DNA of 48,520 bases, from the IMG/VR virus record IMGVR_UViG_2563366838_000005; one strand, 5' to 3'. The translations under genes and the position numbers were made by a program. The stretch comes from a virus. Lineage: Duplodnaviria; Heunggongvirae; Uroviricota; Caudoviricetes. Shown one piece after another: positions 8,372 through 48,520 of this stretch. Every line of letters begins with the position of its first letter. The first letter of the stretch is position 1. The notes under the pieces are model-generated. The model was given only the letters and a program-made list of their open reading frames with translations, did not search any database and was not told the origin of the DNA.

Positions 8372-9415
8372 ATGCCGAATATTGATATTTTTGAACGACG
8401 TACAATGCTTGAGCCTGTTATTCAGAATTTCAAGGCTCGTCGTTTTCTTCTTCGTACCTTTTTTCCTGGTGTTCAGACCTTTAATACAAAGAAAGTTGAT
8501 CTGGATTTTGTTCGCGGTGGCCGTACTATGGCTCCGTTTGTTGGTAAAGGTTTTGGCTCAAAAACCGTTGAGCGACGCGGCTTTGTAACGAGAACTCTGG
8601 AGCCACCACTTGTTGCACCTGATTTGGTAACAACAGCAGAGCTGCTTTTAAACAGGCTTCCGGGTGAGAATATTTACAACGCAAAATCGCCAGCAGAACG
8701 AGCCGCCGAGCAATTAGGTAAAGATTTGCTTGAGCTTGATGAAATGGTTAACCGCCGTGAAGAATGGATGTGTGCACAAGTCTTGTTTACGGGGCAGGTT
8801 GATATTGTTGGTGAAGGTGTGGATGACACAGTTTATTTTTGGCCTGAAGAGGAAGGAGATAAACCATATCTTGAACTGACAGGTGATGATTTATGGAGTG
8901 CTGCAAAATCAGATCCGTTGGTCAATGTTCGCAACTGGAAACGTCGGGTATCACTAACTTCAGGTTTTACACCTCGTGTTGCCGTAATGGGCGCAAAAGT
9001 TGTTGATGCTTTCGTTAAAAATGAAGCAGTAACTAAATATCTTGATAATCGCCGAAAAGAGCTTGGGTATATTGAGCCTAAGGAGTTAGAAGAAGGCGTA
9101 ACTCATTATGGCAATCTTGAAGGTGTCGATTTTTATGGTTACGACGAACTTATTCGCAATGATAAAACAGGAAAACCAGAACCATTAGTACCGGAAGATA
9201 AGATCCTCTTTGGCTCTCCTGGTCGAGGAACGATGCTGTATGGTGCTGTAGAGCTTGTAGATGACGCCGAAAAGACTCTAACGATTGTTGAGTCACCACG
9301 AGTTCCAGACACCTGGGTAACTCGTAAGCCGGCTGGCCGTTATGTTGCCATGAAGTCATCTCCACTGCCTAATCCTGGTGTGGCTGATGCCTATCTGGTG
9401 GCTAAGGTGGTTTAA
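8372..9415 (+). CDS. Major capsid protein, lambda gpE-like
   Basis: 347 aa; N-terminal FLLRTFFPG region resembles lambda E; strong SD; canonical position. Confidence 0.8.
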   Translation: MPNIDIFERRTMLEPVIQNFKARRFLLRTFFPGVQTFNTKKVDLDFVRGGRTMAPFVGKGFGSKTVERRGFVTRTLEPPLVAPDLVTTAELLLNRLPGENIYNAKSPAERAAEQLGKDLLELDEMVNRREEWMCAQVLFTGQVDIVGEGVDDTVYFWPEEEGDKPYLELTGDDLWSAAKSDPLVNVRNWKRRVSLTSGFTPRVAVMGAKVVDAFVKNEAVTKYLDNRRKELGYIEPKELEEGVTHYGNLEGVDFYGYDELIRNDKTGKPEPLVPEDKILFGSPGRGTMLYGAVELVDDAEKTLTIVESPRVPDTWVTRKPAGRYVAMKSSPLPNPGVADAYLVAKVV

Positions 9416-27646: not shown

Positions 27647-27800
27647 TTGGCACCTCCAATTGTTTAAAATGTGTTAATTGTAAAATTCAGCCGATACCAT
27701 GTTCAATGGTATACCATTGCTGAAATGTCTTTTTCAAGACCTTGCCAATAAGCTAAACAAAAATGTTTAATGTGCAGCCTAAAAAAGCACCAGTCACTAT

Positions 27801-27913
27801 TATTTATATAATTATAGATTTATATAAAAAGTGCTTTACGGGTGGGAAAAAATTTCCTAAGGTTATACCCGAAACCGAGCGATACCCGCCCTGGTTAAAC
27901 CGGAGATAACCCG
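27801..27913 (+). promoter_or_regulatory. Conserved promoter/leader block, copy 1
   Basis: Near-identical to 37201-37320 and 45221-45336: TATAATTATAGATTTATATAA motif, TTTAC(A/G)-17 nt-TAAGGT, conserved leader ending GGAG-N8-ATG. Confidence 0.55.
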
Positions 27914-29910: not shown

Positions 29911-29937
29911 AAGCGCCCAAATCGGGCGCTTTGTTTT
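29911..29937. terminator. Terminator hairpin between convergent genes
   Basis: agcgccc aaat cgggcgct followed by ttgtttt; sits between convergent stops at 29901 and 29936. Confidence 0.6.
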
Positions 29938-31087
29938 ATGGTTTTGCACCTGCGGCCAGTTTATCCGCAGATATTTTTATCAGTTCCTGTAGTGTCTTGG
30001 CTGGCAGGTTTGCATCCAGAACGCTGAGTATGCTGTTGTGATCAGCTTGGTCGACTACTTTGCCTGTCGGTGGTAGTAGCTTGAGCTGAGGATTCAGGTT
30101 TTCGTCAAAGCTGATAAGTGCTCTGGCGTTTCTGAGCAGATCAAGAAGTAAGGCTGATATCACATTTTCCTGAGTCATTGCTGGCAGATTTAGCACCGCT
30201 TTGGTTTTCCCTGTTGCCTTGTCAAACTCCTTGATTAGTTCCTTCCTGTAGTTCGGTTCCGTTAATAGCCGATTATGCTCTGTTGCCGCGCGGATAATCG
30301 TTTTTTCCTGGTACAGTCGTTTAGCCAGATCGCGCTCGTACTGTGTTTTTAACACGCTGCTGATAGCGTTAAAGGCTTCAATGTAGGCCAGCTTGATATC
30401 CTTCACGCCTGGACCGTCGATACTTTCCATGAGCAAGGTAAATCCGTCTTTTGTCATGCGATAGATTGTTATTTCGCGGTCGCTTCCTTCCAACGGTCGT
30501 TGCTCTTTAAAGAAATGACGCGCCGCAGCTGTGCGAGGAATGCGTAACGCATCGATGGCCATAACGATGGAATTGTTTGTGGTGCTGAATGCTTGGGCAA
30601 CATCGGCTGAGGTTGTGAGTGGCTCGTTGTTGCACACCTTAACGTAATACATTGGTTTGGCGTTGAGCGTATCGACAACCTCACGAGCATTGTTTGGTGA
30701 GACGGTTACGGTCGCGGCCGTTTGCGCGTTCTGGCTGAAATAGCAGTCTTCCAGCCGTTCGAACACATCCCACGCCTGATCGGTTTCGAGCATTTTAGCG
30801 TGACGTGCAGCCCCGCGTTCTGTCCAGAGGATGAGAGAGCGAGTTTTGGGGGAAATTTGTACCTCATTTTGTGACTCGTTTAAAACTAGTCGCAAATTTT
30901 TGAGTTCATCACCAACAGCTTTAAAGAAGTGCTTCCCCTCAATGAACCGAGTTTTATTTTCATGGTGATTTTGCTGTATACGGATTGCTTCTGTTCCATA
31001 AAGGCGGGCGAGTAGCTCAGTTGTGATTACTGGAATCTGATTATGCAGGATAGGCTGTAGGGTGTTAACGGTCCGAAGCGTTTTCAT
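29936..31087 (-). CDS. Phage antirepressor / regulatory protein (ORF6N-like N-terminus, Rha-like C-terminus)
   Basis: 383 aa; domain layout recalled from antirepressor families; start overlaps upstream small ORF. Confidence 0.65.
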   Translation of the reverse strand: MKTLRTVNTLQPILHNQIPVITTELLARLYGTEAIRIQQNHHENKTRFIEGKHFFKAVGDELKNLRLVLNESQNEVQISPKTRSLILWTERGAARHAKMLETDQAWDVFERLEDCYFSQNAQTAATVTVSPNNAREVVDTLNAKPMYYVKVCNNEPLTTSADVAQAFSTTNNSIVMAIDALRIPRTAAARHFFKEQRPLEGSDREITIYRMTKDGFTLLMESIDGPGVKDIKLAYIEAFNAISSVLKTQYERDLAKRLYQEKTIIRAATEHNRLLTEPNYRKELIKEFDKATGKTKAVLNLPAMTQENVISALLLDLLRNARALISFDENLNPQLKLLPPTGKVVDQADHNSILSVLDANLPAKTLQELIKISADKLAAGAKP

Positions 31088-31371
31088 TTTGCACCTCCCA
31101 TAACTACTTTGGTTACGAGGGAGATTTTTGCGTCAGAAACAGCGTTATCGTTGCTGGCGATGCGCATAGCTTCGCGCTCGATGATTTCAGCCAGGCGGAA
31201 TTTATCGGCGTATGAGGCTTTCTTGAGAAGGATCTTTACGAGATTGACGTAATAGTCATGGGGTAAGTTTGTCATGATGATAGTTCCAGTTTTGATATTG
31301 GAATAATCACCACCGCTGACGCCAATCAGTGAGGTGGTGAGACGTACAGGGTTGGCGTAACCGGTCATCAT
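31084..31371 (-). CDS. Hypothetical protein translationally coupled to antirepressor
   Basis: 95 aa ORF whose stop overlaps the antirepressor start. Confidence 0.45.
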   Translation of the reverse strand: MMTGYANPVRLTTSLIGVSGGDYSNIKTGTIIMTNLPHDYYVNLVKILLKKASYADKFRLAEIIEREAMRIASNDNAVSDAKISLVTKVVMGGAK

Positions 31372-31441
31372 GATACCCGGCGAGCCTTACGGCTCCCCCG
31401 CACGCCCCACCATAATTCGGGTGTAGCTGTGCTTTACGCAT

Positions 31442-31462
31442 AAAAAAACCGCTAACGCGGTA
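31442..31462 (-). terminator. Candidate minus-strand terminator in antirepressor operon leader
   Basis: On minus strand: 5 bp stem accgc/gcggt, 4 nt loop, then T7. Confidence 0.35.
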
Positions 31463-31608
31463 TGCGCCATGATGATTATCGGGACGCCAATCCCGACCGT
31501 AGATTTTGCTACGGCTCGGAAAGTGTCCACCAATGGCGCATTCATGTCAATACGGCAGGATTTTAACAGAGACAACCACATAGCGTGGGTTTATTGGTAG
31601 GCAGAAAC

Positions 31609-31635
31609 AAAAAAACCGCCCTATTGAGGACGGTT
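31609..31635 (-). terminator. Candidate minus-strand terminator in ORF-poor region
   Basis: On minus strand: 8 bp stem with one G-U pair, 6 nt loop, then T7. Confidence 0.45.
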
Positions 31636-32032
31636 CTTTCGTGCTGATCGGATTCGCGGTCCTTTCAGCATTACGTTGTTGTATAAACAACCACGCAAGC
31701 ACAAGCAGCAAGTTAATTTTACCCAAAAGGTAATAATAGTCCACTATTATGCTTCAAAAAATTGTGGTTCTTGTTGTGCCTGCAAACTCACAGATTGTGG
31801 GTAGGTTACTGATTTTGTGAAAATAAACGAGTTTTTTCGTTTAATTTCTTTCCTATTACTAATCTTAAAATAATCGTAAAATACCTGTGGACCTTCCCGC
31901 CGATTCGCACCCGGGCACCGACTTTAGGGGAGGATTCTCCGTTGCCGTACATGCAAGCACAAGCAGCCGTGCTTGCTCTCGCGTTGTTTTCGTCGGTGGG
32001 GATGCCGTGAAACGGCCTGTAAGGGCCATACA

Positions 32033-32155
32033 ATGAAAAAATACTGTATGTGTATTTTTATCGTTGTTACTGGGGCTTTGTTTACGCCACATGGGGAGGG
32101 TTGGAAGATTACTGATAACGCTCTGAATGTGACGATAAACATTAGCAGCAAGTAG
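32033..32155 (+). CDS. Candidate small hydrophobic peptide (40 aa)
   Basis: ATG 32033; hydrophobic core CMCIFIVVTGALF; strong terminator 6 nt after the stop; weak SD. Confidence 0.3.
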   Translation: MKKYCMCIFIVVTGALFTPHGEGWKITDNALNVTINISSK

Positions 32156-32160
32156 CGATT

Positions 32161-32185
32161 AGGCCCCTTCGGGGGCCTTTTTTTA
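32161..32185 (+). terminator. Rho-independent terminator
   Basis: aggcccc ttcg ggggcct followed by T7. Confidence 0.7.
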
Positions 32186-32406: not shown

Positions 32407-32655
32407 TTACTTCTGGTTGTATTGAGCCTTGAGTAACTCAAAAGACTTTGTCAGCACTTCTTTCAATGACATATCCATTGAGCTGGCGAACGTTTTGTAC
32501 TCGCGTTTAAATTCAGGGTCGACGTTAAACGCCATTTGTGCCCCACCTGATTTGGTTCTGGTTGGCGTTTCAGTCGGGTCGAAAACCTGCGGTTGTTCGA
32601 TCGATGGCGGTACGCCTTTGCTGTTCTTCTTTGGTGGTTTTGATGGTGCGGCCAT
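32407..32655 (-). CDS. Partition protein, ParG-like ribbon-helix-helix
   Basis: 82 aa; C-terminal NVDPEFKREYKTFASSMDMSLKEVL resembles ParG RHH; immediately downstream of ParA. Confidence 0.65.
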   Translation of the reverse strand: MAAPSKPPKKNSKGVPPSIEQPQVFDPTETPTRTKSGGAQMAFNVDPEFKREYKTFASSMDMSLKEVLTKSFELLKAQYNQK

Positions 32656-32698
32656 GTGTATCCCCTCTTATATAAATCTATAAAACTATAATTATATA

Positions 32699-33367: not shown

Positions 33368-33480
33368 GTGTTTGGTTATATAATTCTATAAATCTATATT
33401 TATAGAACGAGGTAAGCATAACCAACTTTTTGGCTGATGAAAAGCGTTTTATATAATTATATAAAACTATAATCATATAA
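33368..33480. promoter_or_regulatory. Candidate partition site / par operator with TATA-rich iterons
   Basis: Two clusters (about 33375-33405 and 33445-33478) of CTATAA/TTATAG-type ~8 bp repeats upstream of parA; a third between parG and parA (32663-32698). Confidence 0.45.
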
Positions 33481-33969: not shown

Positions 33970-34626
33970 TCATAACCAGTTGACAACACTAACTACGCGG
34001 CCAAGAACTTTATAACGCTTAAATTCCTCGTTATTCAGATGCTTAGTGTTCATTTCAGCATCCCTTTCGGTTGACAGCATAACAGCATTGTCACCCGGTA
34101 TGACTCTACAGTGCCTCAAAACAACCAGGCCATTTCTGTCTTCAAGGGCATAGATCCCCTCATGAATCTCTGTATCGTCTGTATTAATCAGGACTTGGGA
34201 GCCTGGGGATATTGTTGGTGACATTAACTCATCGTTGCTCTGGAGAACTGACAGAGACGATGGGTTGATGTTCTTGCTTCGTAGAATCTCCTGTTCTATC
34301 GCCAGCACTGGCTTTTCTCCGGCGTGCGATGCTATGTCATTTTTTATAGCTACAAGCCCAGGAATAACAGGAGCGTTAGTATTCTGGGGTGGGAACGGGT
34401 TATCTGTTAAGCACGCGATATAAGGCGCTGATGCTTTCAGGGCGTGCGCGATTTTCTTGATGGCAGGTATAGATGGTTGTCTTAATCCGGCCTCATAGTT
34501 CTGCAAGGTGCTTAAGCCTATTCCAGTGACTTGCTGGAGATCTCCGGCAGTCATGCCGGATTGTTTCCGTAGAGTCTGAATGCGCAGACCTATTTCTTTC
34601 TTGATGTTCTCGTCGTTGCTTTTCAT
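33970..34626 (-). CDS. CI-like prophage repressor (N-terminal HTH, C-terminal S24 LexA-like peptidase domain)
   Basis: 218 aa; HTH GMTAGDLQQVTGIGLSTLQNYE; C-terminal domain with S24-like layout; divergent from Cro-like gene. Confidence 0.8.
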   Translation of the reverse strand: MKSNDENIKKEIGLRIQTLRKQSGMTAGDLQQVTGIGLSTLQNYEAGLRQPSIPAIKKIAHALKASAPYIACLTDNPFPPQNTNAPVIPGLVAIKNDIASHAGEKPVLAIEQEILRSKNINPSSLSVLQSNDELMSPTISPGSQVLINTDDTEIHEGIYALEDRNGLVVLRHCRVIPGDNAVMLSTERDAEMNTKHLNNEEFKRYKVLGRVVSVVNWL

Positions 34627-37151: not shown

Positions 37152-37200
37152 AAGTGTCATTTTGAGCTGTTTTGATGGTGTGTAGACATCGGGAACATCG

Positions 37201-37320
37201 AAAATCTATAAATATATAATTATAGATTTATATAAAAAGTGCTTTACAGGTGGGAAAAAATTTCCTAAGGTTATACCCGAAACCGAGCGATACCCGCCCT
37301 GGTTAAACCGGAGAAATCTG
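37201..37320 (+). promoter_or_regulatory. Conserved promoter/leader block, copy 2
   Basis: Near-identical to copies 1 and 3; upstream AAATCTATAA-N8-TTATAGATTT inverted repeat. Confidence 0.55.
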
Positions 37321-38399: not shown

Positions 38400-38419
38400 C
38401 GGCGGGATGTCTCCCGCCG
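38400..38419 (+). terminator. Hairpin terminator followed by AT-rich iteron-like motif
   Basis: cggcggga tgtc tcccgccg, 8 bp stem. Confidence 0.45.
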
Positions 38420-38444
38420 TATATAGAATTATATATTTATATAA

Positions 38445-38747
38445 ATGTATAAGGACGCCTCGACAATGAAACGCAAAATTATTAACCCCCAAGATGTGAT
38501 TAATTTCCTGACCGATCACCCATGTTCAAAAGTGGACGTAATCGCGGAGCACATTGGTGTGTCGCAGAACTCTATGCGTTGCAGACTGAGAAGCATGGTT
38601 GCCGAAGGACAGATAACAACCAGGAAAATAAATGGTTGCCTGTACTACTCCGCTAAACCGGAATTGCCATTTGGCATGAATCCTAACTCCATGTTGTTTA
38701 ACACCTTATTAGCCAAAGTTAAGCCGTTGAGAGGGGCTGTGGCATGA
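38445..38747 (+). CDS. Hypothetical protein, possible winged-helix DNA-binding (alternative start 38466)
   Basis: 100 aa ORF; segment VDVIAEHIGVSQNSMRCRLRSMVAEGQI resembles a wHTH. Confidence 0.4.
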   Translation: MYKDASTMKRKIINPQDVINFLTDHPCSKVDVIAEHIGVSQNSMRCRLRSMVAEGQITTRKINGCLYYSAKPELPFGMNPNSMLFNTLLAKVKPLRGAVA

Positions 38748-42477: not shown

Positions 42478-42873
42478 ATGTCAGCAGAACCAATTTCCGG
42501 TACGGCCGTTGCTGCTGGTGGCCTGATGGGTGCCAGCGTTTTTGGTATTGCAACTGGTATTGATTACGGCGTTGTATTCGGGGCATTTGCTGGCGCTGTT
42601 TTCTATGTTGCTACAGCGGTGAATATTAGCCGTCTCAAGCTGATTGGCTATTTCTTTACATCGTTCATTGTTGGAGTGATTGGAGCGCCGTTAGTTGGCT
42701 CATTTCTTGCCAAATGGACCAGCTACAACGATCGTCCTCTGGATGCGCTTGGTGCGGTTATTGTGGCTGCATTGACCATTAAAATCCTCACGTTCGTAAA
42801 CAGCCAGGATCTCGGTAGCATCTTTGGAATGCTTTCCCGCTTACGTGGAGGGGGTTCAAATGGTAAGCAGTGA
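42478..42873 (+). CDS. Putative holin (multi-TM membrane protein)
   Basis: 131 aa from ATG 42478 with GAGGA SD; several hydrophobic helices; first gene of lysis cassette. Confidence 0.55.
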   Translation: MSAEPISGTAVAAGGLMGASVFGIATGIDYGVVFGAFAGAVFYVATAVNISRLKLIGYFFTSFIVGVIGAPLVGSFLAKWTSYNDRPLDALGAVIVAALTIKILTFVNSQDLGSIFGMLSRLRGGGSNGKQ

Positions 42874-43156
42874 CCCGTCAGCACTGATTAATGCGGTGCT
42901 TTGCACAGTAATAGTAATGGCGCTGATGCTTTATCGACGGAAAGACTCCAGGCATCGTCCATTTGTTTCCTTTCTGGCTTATATCTACGTCATTGTATAC
43001 GCCAATGTTCCCTTCCGTTATGTGTTCGGTCTTTATCAAGAATCCCACTGGCTGGTGGTTATTGGAAATCTGATTATCTGCATCGTTGTTCTGTATTTCA
43101 GGGGCAATCTGGCGCGGATAGTTGACGCATTAGGGTTTAATCATGACCAAAGATGA
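42860..43156 (+). CDS. Lysis-associated membrane protein (second holin or antiholin candidate)
   Basis: 98 aa from ATG 42860; three hydrophobic segments; overlaps endolysin start. Confidence 0.45.
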   Translation: MVSSDPSALINAVLCTVIVMALMLYRRKDSRHRPFVSFLAYIYVIVYANVPFRYVFGLYQESHWLVVIGNLIICIVVLYFRGNLARIVDALGFNHDQR

Positions 43157-43685
43157 GATTTTTAACAGCATTCTTGGAAAAGAGGGCGGCTATGTGGATC
43201 ACCCTGACGACAAGGGAGGCCCAACAAAGTGGGGCATTACTCAGAATACTGCCCGTGCTCACGGATACCGTGGCGATATGCGAGATCTGACGCGAGAACA
43301 GGCTCTGATGATTCTTGAAGGTGATTATTGGTATGGGCCTCGTTTTGACCAGGTGGCGCAATTTTCCCCTGATATTGCGGCTGAGATGTGCGATACGGGC
43401 GTCAACATGGGGCCGACTGTGGCTACGAAGATGCTTCAACGTTGGCTGAATGTTTTCAACCGTGGCGGGAAGTTGTATCCAGATATGGATGTGGATGGGC
43501 GAATCGGCCCGCGCACCATTGCGGCATTACGTGCTTATCTTGGGAATCGGGGAAAAGACGGCGAACGGGTAATGCTGACGGCCCTGAACTGTACGCAGGG
43601 CGACCGTTATCTGGACCTGGCGGAGAAACGCGAAGCAAATGAGTCGTTTGTCTATGGCTGGATGAAAGAGCGAGTGGTGGTATGA
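43143..43685 (+). CDS. Endolysin, GH108-like N-terminal domain with peptidoglycan-binding C-terminal domain
   Basis: 180 aa; N-terminal EGGYVDHPDDKGGPTKWGIT motif characteristic of GH108 lysozymes. Confidence 0.75.
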   Translation: MTKDEIFNSILGKEGGYVDHPDDKGGPTKWGITQNTARAHGYRGDMRDLTREQALMILEGDYWYGPRFDQVAQFSPDIAAEMCDTGVNMGPTVATKMLQRWLNVFNRGGKLYPDMDVDGRIGPRTIAALRAYLGNRGKDGERVMLTALNCTQGDRYLDLAEKREANESFVYGWMKERVVV

Positions 43686-43960
43686 CTGGTTTGAAAGCCG
43701 TTTTGTCATTTATCGGCACCGTTATATTGGTTGCATTCGGTGCGTTTGGTTTTGGTCGTATGAAGGGGCGAGAAAAGGCCGAAGATGAAGCTGAAAAGCA
43801 GCGCATTAATGAGAATGCAGCCGCCGTAAAAGCCACTGCGGAGCGGCGTATAGAAGTGACAAAAGAGGTGGGCAATGTACAGCAGAGTGTTAACCATATG
43901 GCTGATGACGATGTTGATCGCGAGCTGCGGGAGTCGTGGAAGCGTCCCGGTGGTGGTTGA
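43682..43960 (+). CDS. i-spanin (Rz-like)
   Basis: 92 aa; N-terminal TM helix, charged coiled region; start overlaps endolysin stop. Confidence 0.6.
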   Translation: MTGLKAVLSFIGTVILVAFGAFGFGRMKGREKAEDEAEKQRINENAAAVKATAERRIEVTKEVGNVQQSVNHMADDDVDRELRESWKRPGGG

Positions 43961-44084
43961 TACCGCCTGTGATTGGGTAAAGCCCATCTACCTGACTGAT
44001 CACGATATCGATGTTATGGACCGCCAGACAAAGAAAGATATTCTGGCTCATAACAGGGCATGGGAAATCAACTGCCCCAAGTAA
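43875..44084 (+). CDS. o-spanin (Rz1-like lipoprotein)
   Basis: 69 aa; lipobox LIASC; starts in an alternate frame inside the i-spanin gene. Confidence 0.6.
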   Translation: MYSRVLTIWLMTMLIASCGSRGSVPVVVDTACDWVKPIYLTDHDIDVMDRQTKKDILAHNRAWEINCPK

Positions 44085-44253
44085 TATATATTTCTATAAT
44101 TATATAAATATATAGTTACAACATTCTATGCGCTTTTCTCATGGGCGCACGCATCAACCATGTTTGTCTGATATGCCGCCGCGCCCAAAAATCCTGAATT
44201 TATTGGCTGGGATTTTCGTGCGCGGCGCCACACCAGACAAACAGATCAAATAT

Positions 44254-44329
44254 GGCCCCTTAGCTCAGTGGTTAGAGCAGGCGACTCATAATCGCACGGT
44301 CATCGGTTCAAATCCGGTAGGGGCCACCA
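44254..44329 (+). tRNA. tRNA with CAU anticodon, most like tRNA-Ile2 (lysidine type); could be scored as tRNA-Met
   Basis: 76 nt cloverleaf with 7 bp acceptor stem, D-arm GCTC/GAGC, anticodon loop CTCATAA, T-loop TTCAAAT, encoded CCA; resembles E. coli ileX as recalled. Confidence 0.8.
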
Positions 44330-44637
44330 ATTCACTCTCACACATAAAGATAAGCGCGGTGGAGTTACTTCCTTCGTGCTCATCTTTATGCGTGCCTGGT
44401 GCGCATTTCGGGCGAACGTGGGGCTAAGTTACAGGCAGGGCCTGTTATCCGCAAAGGGGTAAAAGCTGGAGCGGCACGGAACTGTAGCCGTGTTACCAAA
44501 ACAGCGTTGTCGGGCGATATCCGGCACACAACAGGCAAGGGCATTAATCAGTCTGGTTAGTGCCCTTTTCGTTGCGTCTGCTGTAGAGCTGGCCAGCGTT
44601 ATGACTGCCGGAGATAAGCGCCGGAGGCACAACTAAC

Positions 44638-45225
44638 ATGGAGGCAATTGCATTGTTTAATCTGATTTATGCAGATCCCCCCTGGGAATACAAAGATAAG
44701 TGTAAGGATGGGAATCGTGGAGCTGGTTTTAAGTATCCAACGATGAAAGCTGAGGATATTGCTCGTATTCCTGTCTGGCAGCTTGCTAATCCTGAATCGT
44801 GTTTGTTGGCCATGTGGTGGGTTCCGACTCAGCCAGAAGAAGCGTTGCTGGTGGTGAAAGCATGGGGATTCAGGCTTATGACCATGAAGGGCTTCACATG
44901 GAACAAATGTGGTAGCCGACAACCAGATAAGCTGGTGATGGGGATGGGGCATATGACTCGTGCAAACAGTGAAGATTGCTTGTTTGCGGTAAAAGGCAAA
45001 TTGCCGACCCGCCTTGATGCGGGGATCATTCAGTCGTTTACATCGCCTCGTCTGGAGCATTCTCGGAAGCCTGATGTGGTTCGTGACAAGCTGGTAAGGC
45101 TGTTAGGTGATGTTCCTCGTATTGAGCTGTTTGCTCGCGGTGATTTACCTGATGGTTGGCATGGCTGGGGCAACCAGTGCAATGGAAGTATCCAGTTGCA
45201 TGATGCTCTCTGGCAAGTGGTATAG
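44638..45225 (+). CDS. DNA adenine methyltransferase, MT-A70-like
   Basis: 195 aa; IYADPPWEY catalytic motif near N-terminus. Confidence 0.7.
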   Translation: MEAIALFNLIYADPPWEYKDKCKDGNRGAGFKYPTMKAEDIARIPVWQLANPESCLLAMWWVPTQPEEALLVVKAWGFRLMTMKGFTWNKCGSRQPDKLVMGMGHMTRANSEDCLFAVKGKLPTRLDAGIIQSFTSPRLEHSRKPDVVRDKLVRLLGDVPRIELFARGDLPDGWHGWGNQCNGSIQLHDALWQVV

Positions 45226-45336
45226 AATTATATAATTATAGATTTATATAAAAGTGCTTTACAGGTGGGAAAAAATTTCCTATGGTTATACCCGAAACCG
45301 AGCGATACCCGCCCTGGTTAAACCGGAGATAACCCG
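45221..45336 (+). promoter_or_regulatory. Conserved promoter/leader block, copy 3
   Basis: Near-identical to copies 1 and 2 (TTTACA-17 nt-TATGGT variant), ends at ATG 45337. Confidence 0.55.
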
Positions 45337-47210: not shown

Positions 47211-47834
47211 ATGACAAAACATCTTAATGTGGTTTCTTTACCACTTTCTGTGTTGATTGGTTATGAAAAGAACGCTCGCACACACTCCGTGGAGCAGGTA
47301 GATCAGATTGTTGCCAGCATACAGGAGTACGGATGGACTAATCCGATCCTGATAGACGAGAACAACGTTGTAATTGCTGGTCATGGTCGAATTGCTGCGG
47401 CCACTCAGTTGGGGATGGATGATGTTCCCTGCATTGTTCTGGCTGGGCTAACGGAGAATCAGAAGAAGGCATATCGTCTGGCCGACAACCGTATTCCGCT
47501 GAATGCTGGTTGGGATGAAGAGTTGTTAAGCGCGGAGCTTGCAGATCTTGCGGCCGATGATTTTGCTCTGGACTCAATTGGTTTTACTCAGCGCGAACTG
47601 GATAACTTATTGAGTGCGGCAGTCTACGATGACACAGAGGGTATGGATATCCCATTTGAGAAGGATGAGGCCAAATCAGGCGTAAAAGTTCAGTACCTGT
47701 CATTTGGAGGTCATAAAATCCCGGCAACGGATGAGGAAGCGGATCGTTTTGACTGCGCGGTGTCTCGTTATGTTGATGATAATGGCAGCTATATCGGATT
47801 TGTATCCGCATTGCTGGCTGGGGAGGTGTGCTGA
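47211..47834 (+). CDS. ParB-like nuclease domain protein (paralog of 2076..2666)
   Basis: KNARTHS and GHGRIAAA motifs; stop overlaps the start of the next gene. Confidence 0.75.
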   Translation: MTKHLNVVSLPLSVLIGYEKNARTHSVEQVDQIVASIQEYGWTNPILIDENNVVIAGHGRIAAATQLGMDDVPCIVLAGLTENQKKAYRLADNRIPLNAGWDEELLSAELADLAADDFALDSIGFTQRELDNLLSAAVYDDTEGMDIPFEKDEAKSGVKVQYLSFGGHKIPATDEEADRFDCAVSRYVDDNGSYIGFVSALLAGEVC

Positions 47835-48520
47835 TGCTTCACCTCAATTACGACATAACGCACCTACGCGGCGCGGAATATAACCCGCGTTTTATCGGTG
47901 AGGATGATCTTGCGAGGCTGGCGGAAAGCGTCAGGGAGCTGGGGCTTGTGAAGCCATTGATAGTGCGCGGCGATTTGCTGGTGGCGGGACACCAAAGGAC
48001 GAAGGCGCTACGTAAGTTGGGAATAACGCGTGCTGCGGTGTATGTGTTGCCCTGTGAAACGACGGTATACGACGAAGTACGGTTTAACCAACTGCATAAC
48101 GGAACGGATTTTGATAGCGGAGATGAGCGTTGCAGGGTGTCCGGTCTGGAAGATAAGCATGGTTTTGTTCAGGTATCGGCAAGCCAGATCTCAGGCAATA
48201 TGCGCGCGAAAATGGCATATGTTCGAAAGAACATAGCGGAACTGGTTATCAAGTATGGTCCGTGGGGTGGTTGTGTTGCTACTCAGTCTGGTGAGGTTAT
48301 TCACTGTGCTCAGTATGCATTAGCAGCGAAAATGACGCGCACACCGCTAACGGTGTTTGTGATCCCTGATGTTGAGAAGGAAAAATACCAAAGTTATCTG
48401 AATAAAACTTATGGTGTATTTGAGTATTCTCATCTGGAGAAAACAACATACATCCAGACGTATGCGCAGCTTATGCGGTTGCGTAATGGTGGCAGCCTGA
48501 AATCAAATCTGTATGAGTCG
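47834..48520 (+). CDS. 5' portion of wrap-around gene: ParB-N-like domain of the ParB/methyltransferase fusion (runs off window end, continues at 1..782)
   Basis: ATG 47834 overlapping previous TGA; GHQRTKAL ParB-like motif; no stop before window end; frame continuous with 48..782. Confidence 0.65.
   Translation, partial: MLHLNYDITHLRGAEYNPRFIGEDDLARLAESVRELGLVKPLIVRGDLLVAGHQRTKALRKLGITRAAVYVLPCETTVYDEVRFNQLHNGTDFDSGDERCRVSGLEDKHGFVQVSASQISGNMRAKMAYVRKNIAELVIKYGPWGGCVATQSGEVIHCAQYALAAKMTRTPLTVFVIPDVEKEKYQSYLNKTYGVFEYSHLEKTTYIQTYAQLMRLRNGGSLKSNLYES

Follow-up and report, generated by a model that had tools for sequence, protein, structure and literature searches.

A complete and probably functional tRNA-Ile2 gene, with the anticodon CAU and an encoded CCA end, lies at 44254..44329 on the plus strand of the window, the whole 48,520-nt stretch of DNA analysed here, and in our judgement it most likely serves to raise AUA decoding capacity on an Escherichia phage-plasmid. 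We infer that the gene is transcribed and that its precursor would be trimmed to a 76-nt tRNA in which the CCA is already present. The host TilS would recognise the pairs C4:G69 and C5:G68 and turn C34 into lysidine, IleRS would charge the product with isoleucine, and the charged, modified tRNA would read AUA; the likely effect would be an AUA decoding capacity beyond that provided by the only such genes of E. coli, ileX and ileY. What the sequence shows is the gene itself, identity elements of the Ile2 type, a phage lineage and a biased codon usage in the element that carries it.

ARAGORN, run over the entire window, returned exactly one tRNA, at 44254-44329 (+), with the anticodon CAT beginning at position 34 (tRNA positions 34-36, 44287..44289, plus strand), in which C34 is the base that TilS would be expected to convert to lysidine. 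Rfam family RF00005 scored 67 bits over 44254-44326 (gathering score 29; E = 1.6e-12 in a search of the entire window against all Rfam families). The gene has a complete acceptor stem of 7 bp, A73 and an encoded CCA, and so is not a tRNA-derived fragment lacking part of that stem. Among ten distinct alleles 96.2% of cells were paired in the cloverleaf, compared with 29-49% when the 3' partners were slid, and in 500 shuffles neither the pairing nor the covariation score of the alleles was equalled. Among the alleles, 6:67, 49:65 and 51:63 show compensatory changes, those at 49:65 and 51:63 being compensatory relative to ileX, and the stems stay paired throughout. These results bear out the first-pass annotation, made from the sequence alone, which had placed a cloverleaf tRNA with a CAU anticodon at this position. 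The minimum free energy fold of the single sequence is not a cloverleaf, as is common among tRNAs, and is evidence neither way. Within the family of elements described below the tRNA has three polymorphisms, at positions 13 (C-G to U-G), 26 and 59, all of them structure-neutral; this amounts to 3 variable columns in 76, against 3 to 9% in the flanks, although with a family only 1 to 3% diverged such conservation is uninformative on selection.

Comparison with the tRNA genes of E. coli K-12 points to the isoleucine rather than the methionine class. The window tRNA matches ileX at 68 of 76 positions and ileY at 66 of 76, but the elongator metT/U at only 57 and the initiator metZ at 51. Its acceptor stem (GGCCCCU/AGGGGCC) is that of ileX, and so are the D arm, the anticodon loop and pairs 28-31:39-42 of the anticodon stem; D arm, anticodon loop, TilS pairs and A73 are shared with ileX and ileY alike, and the loop, CUCAUAA, is found also in phage P1 trnI and in ileZ of the Stx phage 933W. 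The eight differences from ileX are U43A, U44C, G59A and changes in three T-stem pairs, of which two are compensatory. U43A converts the G-U pair at 27:43 of the host tRNA into a G-A mismatch, a feature that we count against the proposed function. Whereas ileX and ileY are chromosomal, the window gene lies on a mobile element.

The dominant identity elements for E. coli TilS are C4:G69 and C5:G68, and the U4-A69 and A5-U68 pairs of tRNA-Met are TilS-negative elements (PMC12514573, PMC11947777, PMC2500205); a heterologous tRNA-Ile2 that keeps C4:G69/C5:G68 is accepted by the E. coli enzyme (PMC12514573). Both positive pairs are present in the window tRNA and both negative pairs are absent. TmcA, the enzyme that marks tRNA-Met, requires C27-G43, C30-G40 and G44 (PMC2500205), and all of these determinants are likewise missing from the window tRNA, which has G27-A43, G30-C40 and C44. 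Its anticodon stem is GGCGA/UCGCA. Initiator tRNAs have an unpaired 1:72 position and three consecutive G-C pairs at 29-31:39-41; since G1-C72 is paired, the window tRNA is not an initiator. The IleRS identity elements that Nureki et al. are said to have described in 1994 (A73, A37, A38, C29-G41, U12-A23 and C4-G69) are all in place.

The methionine label is nevertheless attached to this gene, by ARAGORN and in three GenBank Yersinia phage records (OR545053-55), which take the anticodon literally, and unmodified tRNA-Ile2 can serve as a substrate of MetRS. An elongator tRNA-Met reading AUG is all the same very unlikely, and we consider it ruled out by the identity elements above; PGAP, moreover, labels the identical sequence in a RefSeq plasmid (L001:6455-6530) as tRNA-Ile. 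ARAGORN makes no distinction between tRNA-Ile2 and tRNA-Met. We thus assign the gene to tRNA-Ile2 with high confidence on these sequence features, as the first-pass annotation had proposed, and its identity determinants predict lysidine at C34 and charging with isoleucine.

The first 95 nt of the window recur at its end, so that the window represents a circular genome of 48,425 bp. The source element is an Escherichia-infecting circular phage-plasmid of about 48.4 kb, belonging to the family of pECO-b75, the E. coli ATCC 25922 plasmid and Yersinia phage vB_YpM_39. Records of this family are circular plasmids of 47-50 kb, near-identical to the window and common in E. coli. They combine RepA, ParA and a toxin-antitoxin pair with a full myovirus-type set of head, tail and baseplate genes, and no integrase is annotated in them; the isolated Yersinia phages vB_YpM_39, 41 and 44 (OR545053-55) are syntenic with the window, with 98.9% identity in the tRNA region. 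On these grounds the element is a phage-plasmid and not an integrated prophage, which refines the earlier reading. Of 5,426 complete E. coli genomes, 69 contain 80% or more of the 1-kb stretch surrounding the tRNA, and the intergenic region is found in 58 to 61 PLSDB plasmids, the lower figure counting those in which 80% or more of the 556-nt intergenic query is covered; the 61 are mostly from Escherichia, with three from Salmonella and one from Klebsiella. One member resides in the reference strain E. coli ATCC 25922 as plasmid NZ_CP009073.1, where the gene, at 31562-31637, is labelled tRNA-Ile. Our literature search found no paper on the family (vB_YpM_39, pECO-b75), and the Y. pestis pseudolysogenic phage HQ103 was not among the matches listed. 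The small protein encoded after parA (32407-32655) has no Pfam match, and a Pfam-recognisable centromere-binding protein is therefore not supported.

The closest relative of the window tRNA is trnI of phages P1 and P7 (NC_005856, 70933-71008), which matches it at 72 of 76 positions and is curated in the P1 record as 'tRNA-ile2 (CAT), 89% identical to ileX'. The two differ at positions 6, 26, 50 and 59 and have in common the derived bases A43, C44, A49:U65 and C51:G63, which do not occur in the host genes; by these bases, together with an identity of at least 94%, the window tRNA falls into the P1-type trnI lineage. Each is the single Ile2 gene of an Escherichia phage-plasmid, with CCA encoded. 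Their settings differ, as P1 trnI belongs to the ban operon, which is under C1 control, with tciABC (tciC) before it and the ban helicase gene after it, whereas the window tRNA lies between the Rz1 and MT-A70 genes, in flanks without homology to those of P1.

A 20-mer spanning positions 43-44 was found at 120 or more IMG/VR loci, and among the 120 matches listed 9 have flanks of the window family and 111 have P1-like flanks. Rare alleles that mix the bases of the window and P1 types at positions 6, 26, 50 and 59 occur in both contexts. An exact scan for the same 20-mer in 185,579 species-representative genomes gave only two matches. One, in an Oscillospiraceae metagenome-assembled genome, was rejected as chance, there being no tRNA at that place; the other is on an 83-kb contig of an Escherichia assembly, which may be a P1-like element. 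Judged by these matches, the A43/C44 allele appears to circulate among Escherichia phage-plasmids and to be native to no sampled chromosome.

Other phage-borne relatives are more distant. The ileZ gene of Stx phage 933W is also a tRNA-Ile2 (CAU) near late and lysis genes, for which the same rare-codon rationale holds, and its 27:43 pair is also non-Watson-Crick, although A-C rather than G-A. It belongs, however, to a three-tRNA cluster (ileZ-argN-argO) with two tRNA-Arg genes, located between Q/pR' and stx and upstream of the lysis genes, whereas the window carries a lone tRNA downstream of its lysis genes and no tRNA-Arg; the lambdoid order of Q, tRNA cluster and stx/lysis genes does not occur in the window. 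Salmonella phages STML-198 and Melville and Proteus phage ABTNLPp2 carry Ile2-like CAU tRNAs about 89.5% identical to that of the window and often labelled tRNA-Met. These isolated phages, which we take to be virulent, have multi-tRNA arrays in genomes of about 158-160 kb, in contrast to the lone tRNA of a temperate phage-plasmid seen here.

To compare codon usage with that of the host, 65 window genes were curated by transferring the PGAP annotation of pECO-b75 to the window, the late genes being those for packaging, head, tail and baseplate, and 40 genes in 50 kb around ileX served as the K-12 sample. AUA makes up 14.9 per 1000 codons and 24% of isoleucine codons in all 65 window genes, 20.2 per 1000 and 31% in the late genes, and 3.5 per 1000 and 6% in the K-12 sample (window versus K-12, Fisher p = 1e-24). 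The published figure for E. coli is 4.9 per 1000 (PMC12514573), which puts the excess over E. coli at 3 to 4 times overall and about 4 to 6 times in the virion genes. AUA is 2.2-fold more frequent in the late genes than in the remaining element (p = 2e-7), and all five tandem AUA-AUA pairs lie within late genes. The suggestion in the first-pass annotation that a phage copy of the tRNA could support translation of AUA-containing late genes thus finds its counterpart in the codon counts; the bias fits codon supplementation for the late genes, from which a fitness benefit would follow.

Several counts weigh against codon supplementation. Two arginine codons are enriched more strongly than AUA, AGA about nine-fold and AGG about eight-fold (9.7 versus 1.05 and 5.2 versus 0.63 per 1000 in the element and the K-12 sample, respectively), but the element has no tRNA-Arg gene. 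None of the 346 codons of the major capsid gene is AUA, and the most highly expressed gene is thus independent of this tRNA. A relative (L134) whose structural module is 97.6% identical, with 14.6 AUA per 1000 codons, has no tRNA in the 10 kb examined, and relatives with about 88% TerL identity have about 10 AUA per 1000 and mostly lack an Ile2 tRNA in that stretch. On the supporting side, some relatives that share this head-tail module have different tRNAs in roughly the corresponding region, namely Thr-UGU with Gly-UCC, or Arg-UCU just before the holins; of two further relatives, one has a CAU tRNA together with Phe and Thr tRNAs there and the other a lone CAU tRNA, both CAU tRNAs being Ile2-like by alignment with some positions irregular. 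The presence of different tRNAs in that region of elements with a common AT-rich virion module suggests that such elements have acquired tRNAs repeatedly.

The gene follows the lysis cassette (42478..44084, plus strand; assigned with Pfam and PHROGs), as the first-pass annotation had said. The cassette consists of two holin genes (Phage_holin_8, 42478-42873; Phage_holin_3_7, 42860-43156), a GH108 endolysin with a PG_binding_3 domain (43140-43685), an Rz-like spanin (43682-43960) and an Rz1-like spanin overlapping it (43875-44084), all on the plus strand, and 169 nt separate the Rz1 stop from the tRNA start. The next gene downstream encodes an MT-A70 family DNA methyltransferase (44638..45225, plus strand; Pfam PF05063, E = 3e-23; also called by PGAP) and possibly forms one unit with the non-coding sequences around the tRNA.

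An open reading frame at 44128..44427 (+) spans the tRNA, the hairpin upstream of it and its trailer. It has no Pfam match, is unannotated in RefSeq and GenBank relatives, and is broken within the family. When its integrity was checked in 12 near-identical members, a stop was found at codon 6 in L088 and at codon 47 in L118, the latter made by the structure-neutral tRNA change C13U, and a frameshift near codon 81 in L003, L025, L029, L088 and L118; the tRNA is intact in the members in which the frame is broken. In L135, a relative with 88% TerL amino acid identity, about 75% nucleotide identity and unrelated endolysin and spanin genes, there is no plus-strand ORF over the conserved hairpin; Salmonella plasmid CP053324 is one example that carries an L135-type relative. 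The frame does match phrog_23857 ('unknown function', E = 1e-41), but we did not accept this as proof of a protein, given the stops and frameshifts in relatives, and the most plausible explanation of the PHROG is that it gathers ORFs mis-called across the tRNA region. The view that this ORF is spurious is therefore upheld.

Comparison with L135 also outlines a non-coding arrangement around the tRNA. An AT-rich array with a period of about 8 bp (44078..44114, strand unassigned; repeat family D1) is a candidate operator or promoter element and one of eight dispersed intergenic copies, three of which run on into a 102-nt repeat with TTTACA-N17-TAAGGT (or TATGGT) and a shared leader. The array and the GTTACAACATTC that follows it are almost unchanged in L135, though the coding DNA on either side is unrelated between the two or has about 75% identity. 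A sigma-70 promoter scan of 43600-45300 found no promoter upstream of the tRNA or at the array, which we count against the proposed function. A long hairpin with 34-nt arms (44161..44243, plus strand; inverted repeat I4) ends 11 nt upstream of the tRNA; the fold of 44120-44253 has -49 kcal/mol (z = -5.1), and the hairpin is kept in L135 with two compensatory pairs. It could be a processing site, for example for RNase III, or a regulatory structure.

Homology between the window and L135 ends at 44246 and restarts at 44402. The intervening 155-nt segment (44247-44401) is specific to tRNA-bearing members and includes a predicted hairpin in the tRNA 3' trailer (44343..44390, plus strand); the slot thus holds the tRNA and a 72-nt trailer in the window, and in L135 its content is some 670 nt long, free of ORFs and strongly structured (z = -4.65), and matches no Rfam family. 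Low-threshold Rfam searches of 43950-44700 and of the L135 slot gave sub-threshold matches only, to miRNA models on the hairpin and to a rydB-like model (27-29 bits against a gathering score of 50), and these were taken as chance or left unassigned. Downstream of the slot lies a conserved non-coding block (44402..44536, plus strand) with no matching Rfam family, and over the interval 44402-44637 the window and L135 are visibly more alike than over the MT-A70 coding sequence, where they are 74-75% identical. The block is followed by a hairpin resembling an intrinsic terminator (44537..44573, plus strand), with 14 pairs, a GGGCA/UGCCC base and a fold z of -4.3, and then by UUUUCGUU; in L135, where the loop carries an insertion of 36 nt, compensatory changes preserve the stem, and the T-run is conserved as well. 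A simple terminator scan of 43600-45300 missed this hairpin. These comparisons would place the tRNA in a slot whose cargo varies, within a conserved cassette of non-coding elements. It more likely belongs to such a cassette of its own than to the tail of the lysis operon, and transcription of the cassette may have a separate, regulated start and stop at 44573, instead of being an extension of the lysis transcript.

Codon supplementation was weighed against other accounts of why the element carries this gene. One is that the tRNA mainly serves counter-defence or replaces that of the host: instead of making up for a mismatch in codon usage, it would sustain AUA decoding after cleavage, depletion or an end to synthesis has removed the host tRNA-Ile2 during infection. 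Evasion of tRNA-targeting defences has been put forward as a role of phage tRNAs (PMC10264068). The A43/C44 allele is found, among the matches listed, in only two unrelated phage-plasmid families and not on the chromosomes of the 185,579 species representatives, and the phage-specific changes cluster at 27:43 and 44, beside the anticodon stem, in the window tRNA, P1 trnI and 933W ileZ alike (with other bases in ileZ). The anticodon loop, however, is that of the host and so has none of the mutations by which evasion has been described, and the codon bias is by itself a sufficient rationale. We know of no nuclease specific for tRNA-Ile2, and we regard a counter-defence role as unlikely.

It is likewise improbable that the gene is neutral or nearly neutral cargo, recombined from a co-resident P1-like phage-plasmid into the variable slot and kept by linkage. 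The unrelated contents of the slot in the window and L135, the mixed alleles in both flanking contexts, and the tRNA-free stretch of L134 beside the same AUA-rich virion module would all be explained in this way. Against it, the gene is intact in all family members examined, with structure-neutral polymorphisms only, and is present in the 58 PLSDB plasmids and 69 complete E. coli genomes; the intactness weighs little, as the family is so closely related.

A more elaborate account, which we consider unlikely as a whole, makes the tRNA an interchangeable cargo of a separately regulated non-coding-RNA cassette, with an allele tuned for phage use. The cassette would run from the AT-rich array through the 34-bp-arm hairpin, the cargo slot, the conserved block and the terminator to MT-A70; the eight AT arrays may be bound by one common regulator, and the A43/C44 tRNA-Ile2 allele would be exchanged only among Escherichia phage-plasmids. 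As the HTH repressor-like gene (33970-34626) has 37 AUA per 1000 codons, AUA decoding might be coupled to the lysis-lysogeny decision; alternatively, the allele might escape a host factor acting on the 27:43/44 region.

Finally, many temperate phages carry tRNA segments at attP, but a remnant of, or target for, site-specific integration is highly improbable here and was rejected, as no integrase is annotated in this family of RepA- and ParA-bearing circular plasmids, so that the tRNA is not part of an attachment site, and as the gene is full-length with eight differences from host ileX, some of them compensatory.

The preferred reading, that of a tRNA-Ile2 gene supplementing AUA decoding, makes the first-pass annotation correct in both observation and interpretation, and the finding is an ordinary one. 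The gene was already known, being annotated as tRNA-Ile in RefSeq plasmids including that of E. coli ATCC 25922, and genes of this kind were already curated as P1 trnI and Stx phage ileZ. The present work adds the connection with the P1 lineage, the codon counts, the case against the overlapping ORF and its PHROG family, and the conserved non-coding cassette with its swappable slot. Its import beyond correct annotation is small, but annotation is affected: the GenBank phage records of the family and ARAGORN-based pipelines mislabel the gene as tRNA-Met, and at least one PHROG family (phrog_23857) was apparently built from ORFs mis-called over the tRNA. As it combines just one tRNA with a clear AUA bias, in a host strain that is easy to obtain, the family offers a simple test system for the value of a rare-codon tRNA to a temperate element.

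The segment carrying the tRNA-Ile2 gene (window 44247-44401) is replaced in L135, a relative whose TerL shares 88% amino-acid identity with that of the window, by approximately 670 nt of different sequence (L135:1544-2210, IMGVR_UViG_2695420618_000004). This filling contains no ORF longer than 66 amino acids on either strand. With a strong predicted fold (z = -4.65) and no counterpart in Rfam, it may represent an undescribed structured RNA. Homology resumes in a non-coding block (44402-44637) 5' of the MT-A70 gene, which is conserved between the window and L135 visibly above the level of coding sequence. Compensatory changes preserve a terminator-like hairpin within this block (44537-44573) in L135. 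Rfam also gives a weak rydB-like match at 44580-44635 (27 bits, under the gathering score of 50), with a similar match in L135 (29 bits, gathering score 50).

Viral contigs with the TerL and head module in common (∼88% amino-acid identity) differ in the tRNAs that they carry 6 to 6.5 kb 5' of TerL. These comprise Thr-UGU and Gly-UCC tRNAs (L142/L143:4046-4201), a CAU tRNA together with Phe and Thr tRNAs (L145:3863-4091), a lone CAU tRNA (L147:3472-3547), and an Arg-UCU tRNA just 5' of the holins (L154:3757-3833); many further relatives have no tRNA at that place. On alignment, the two CAU tRNAs look Ile2-like. A plasmid of E. coli ATCC 25922, a strain in standard use for quality control (NZ_CP009073.1, 48,488 bp), belongs to the same phage-plasmid family as the window and has a tRNA-Ile gene in the corresponding position (31562-31637).

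The spurious ORF that spans the tRNA (44128-44427) matches phrog_23857, a family of unknown function (E = 1e-41), which suggests that this family was itself assembled from ORFs mis-called over the tRNA region. Two genes stand out in their usage of AUA, the codon read by tRNA-Ile2: the major capsid gene (8372-9415) has none in 346 codons, in a neighbourhood of late genes averaging 20 per 1000, and an HTH/S24 repressor-like gene (33970-34626) has eight, equivalent to 36.9 per 1000 and among the highest values in the element.

Two families of dispersed non-coding sequence were also found. Eight AT-rich arrays (27790-27826, 32662-32698, 33377-33417, 33435-33479, 37198-37242, 38415-38451, 44078-44114 and 45214-45250) each consist of 3 to 4 TATAnnnn units with a period of approximately 8 bp. 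All eight are intergenic, placed where transcription units begin and to either side of parA, and the array 5' of the tRNA (44078-44114) is near-identical in L135 despite the ∼75% identity of that relative. The arrays may be operators or centromere-like sites for one common regulator; the small ParA-linked protein has no match in Pfam. The second family is a 102-nt repeat in three copies (27805-27906, 37213-37314 and 45228-45329; 99% and 81% identity to the reference copy), which contains a sigma-70-like TTTACA-N17-TAAGGT/TATGGT and a common leader that ends, in each copy, at the start codon of a gene unrelated to the other two.

Positions 1-95 of the window are repeated exactly at 48426-48520. 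This terminal duplication is overlap from the assembly; the molecule itself is circular, with a true length of 48,425 bp, and is opened within a ParB N-terminal-domain gene. Three ParB/Srx-like genes (47211-47834, 47834-48520 joined to 1-782, and 2076-2666) are located with the MT-A70 methyltransferase gene (44638-45225) between the lysis and packaging modules, an unusual density of ParB-nuclease-like genes.

Finally, gathering-level Rfam matches to C4 antisense RNA, isrK and ryfA (31330-31417 (-), 31442-31515 (-) and 31887-32183 (+)) adjoin a Rha/Ant-like gene (29936-31087 (-)). This locus looks like an immI antisense immunity region of the P1/P7 type, and the phage-plasmid also has its tRNA lineage in common with P1.
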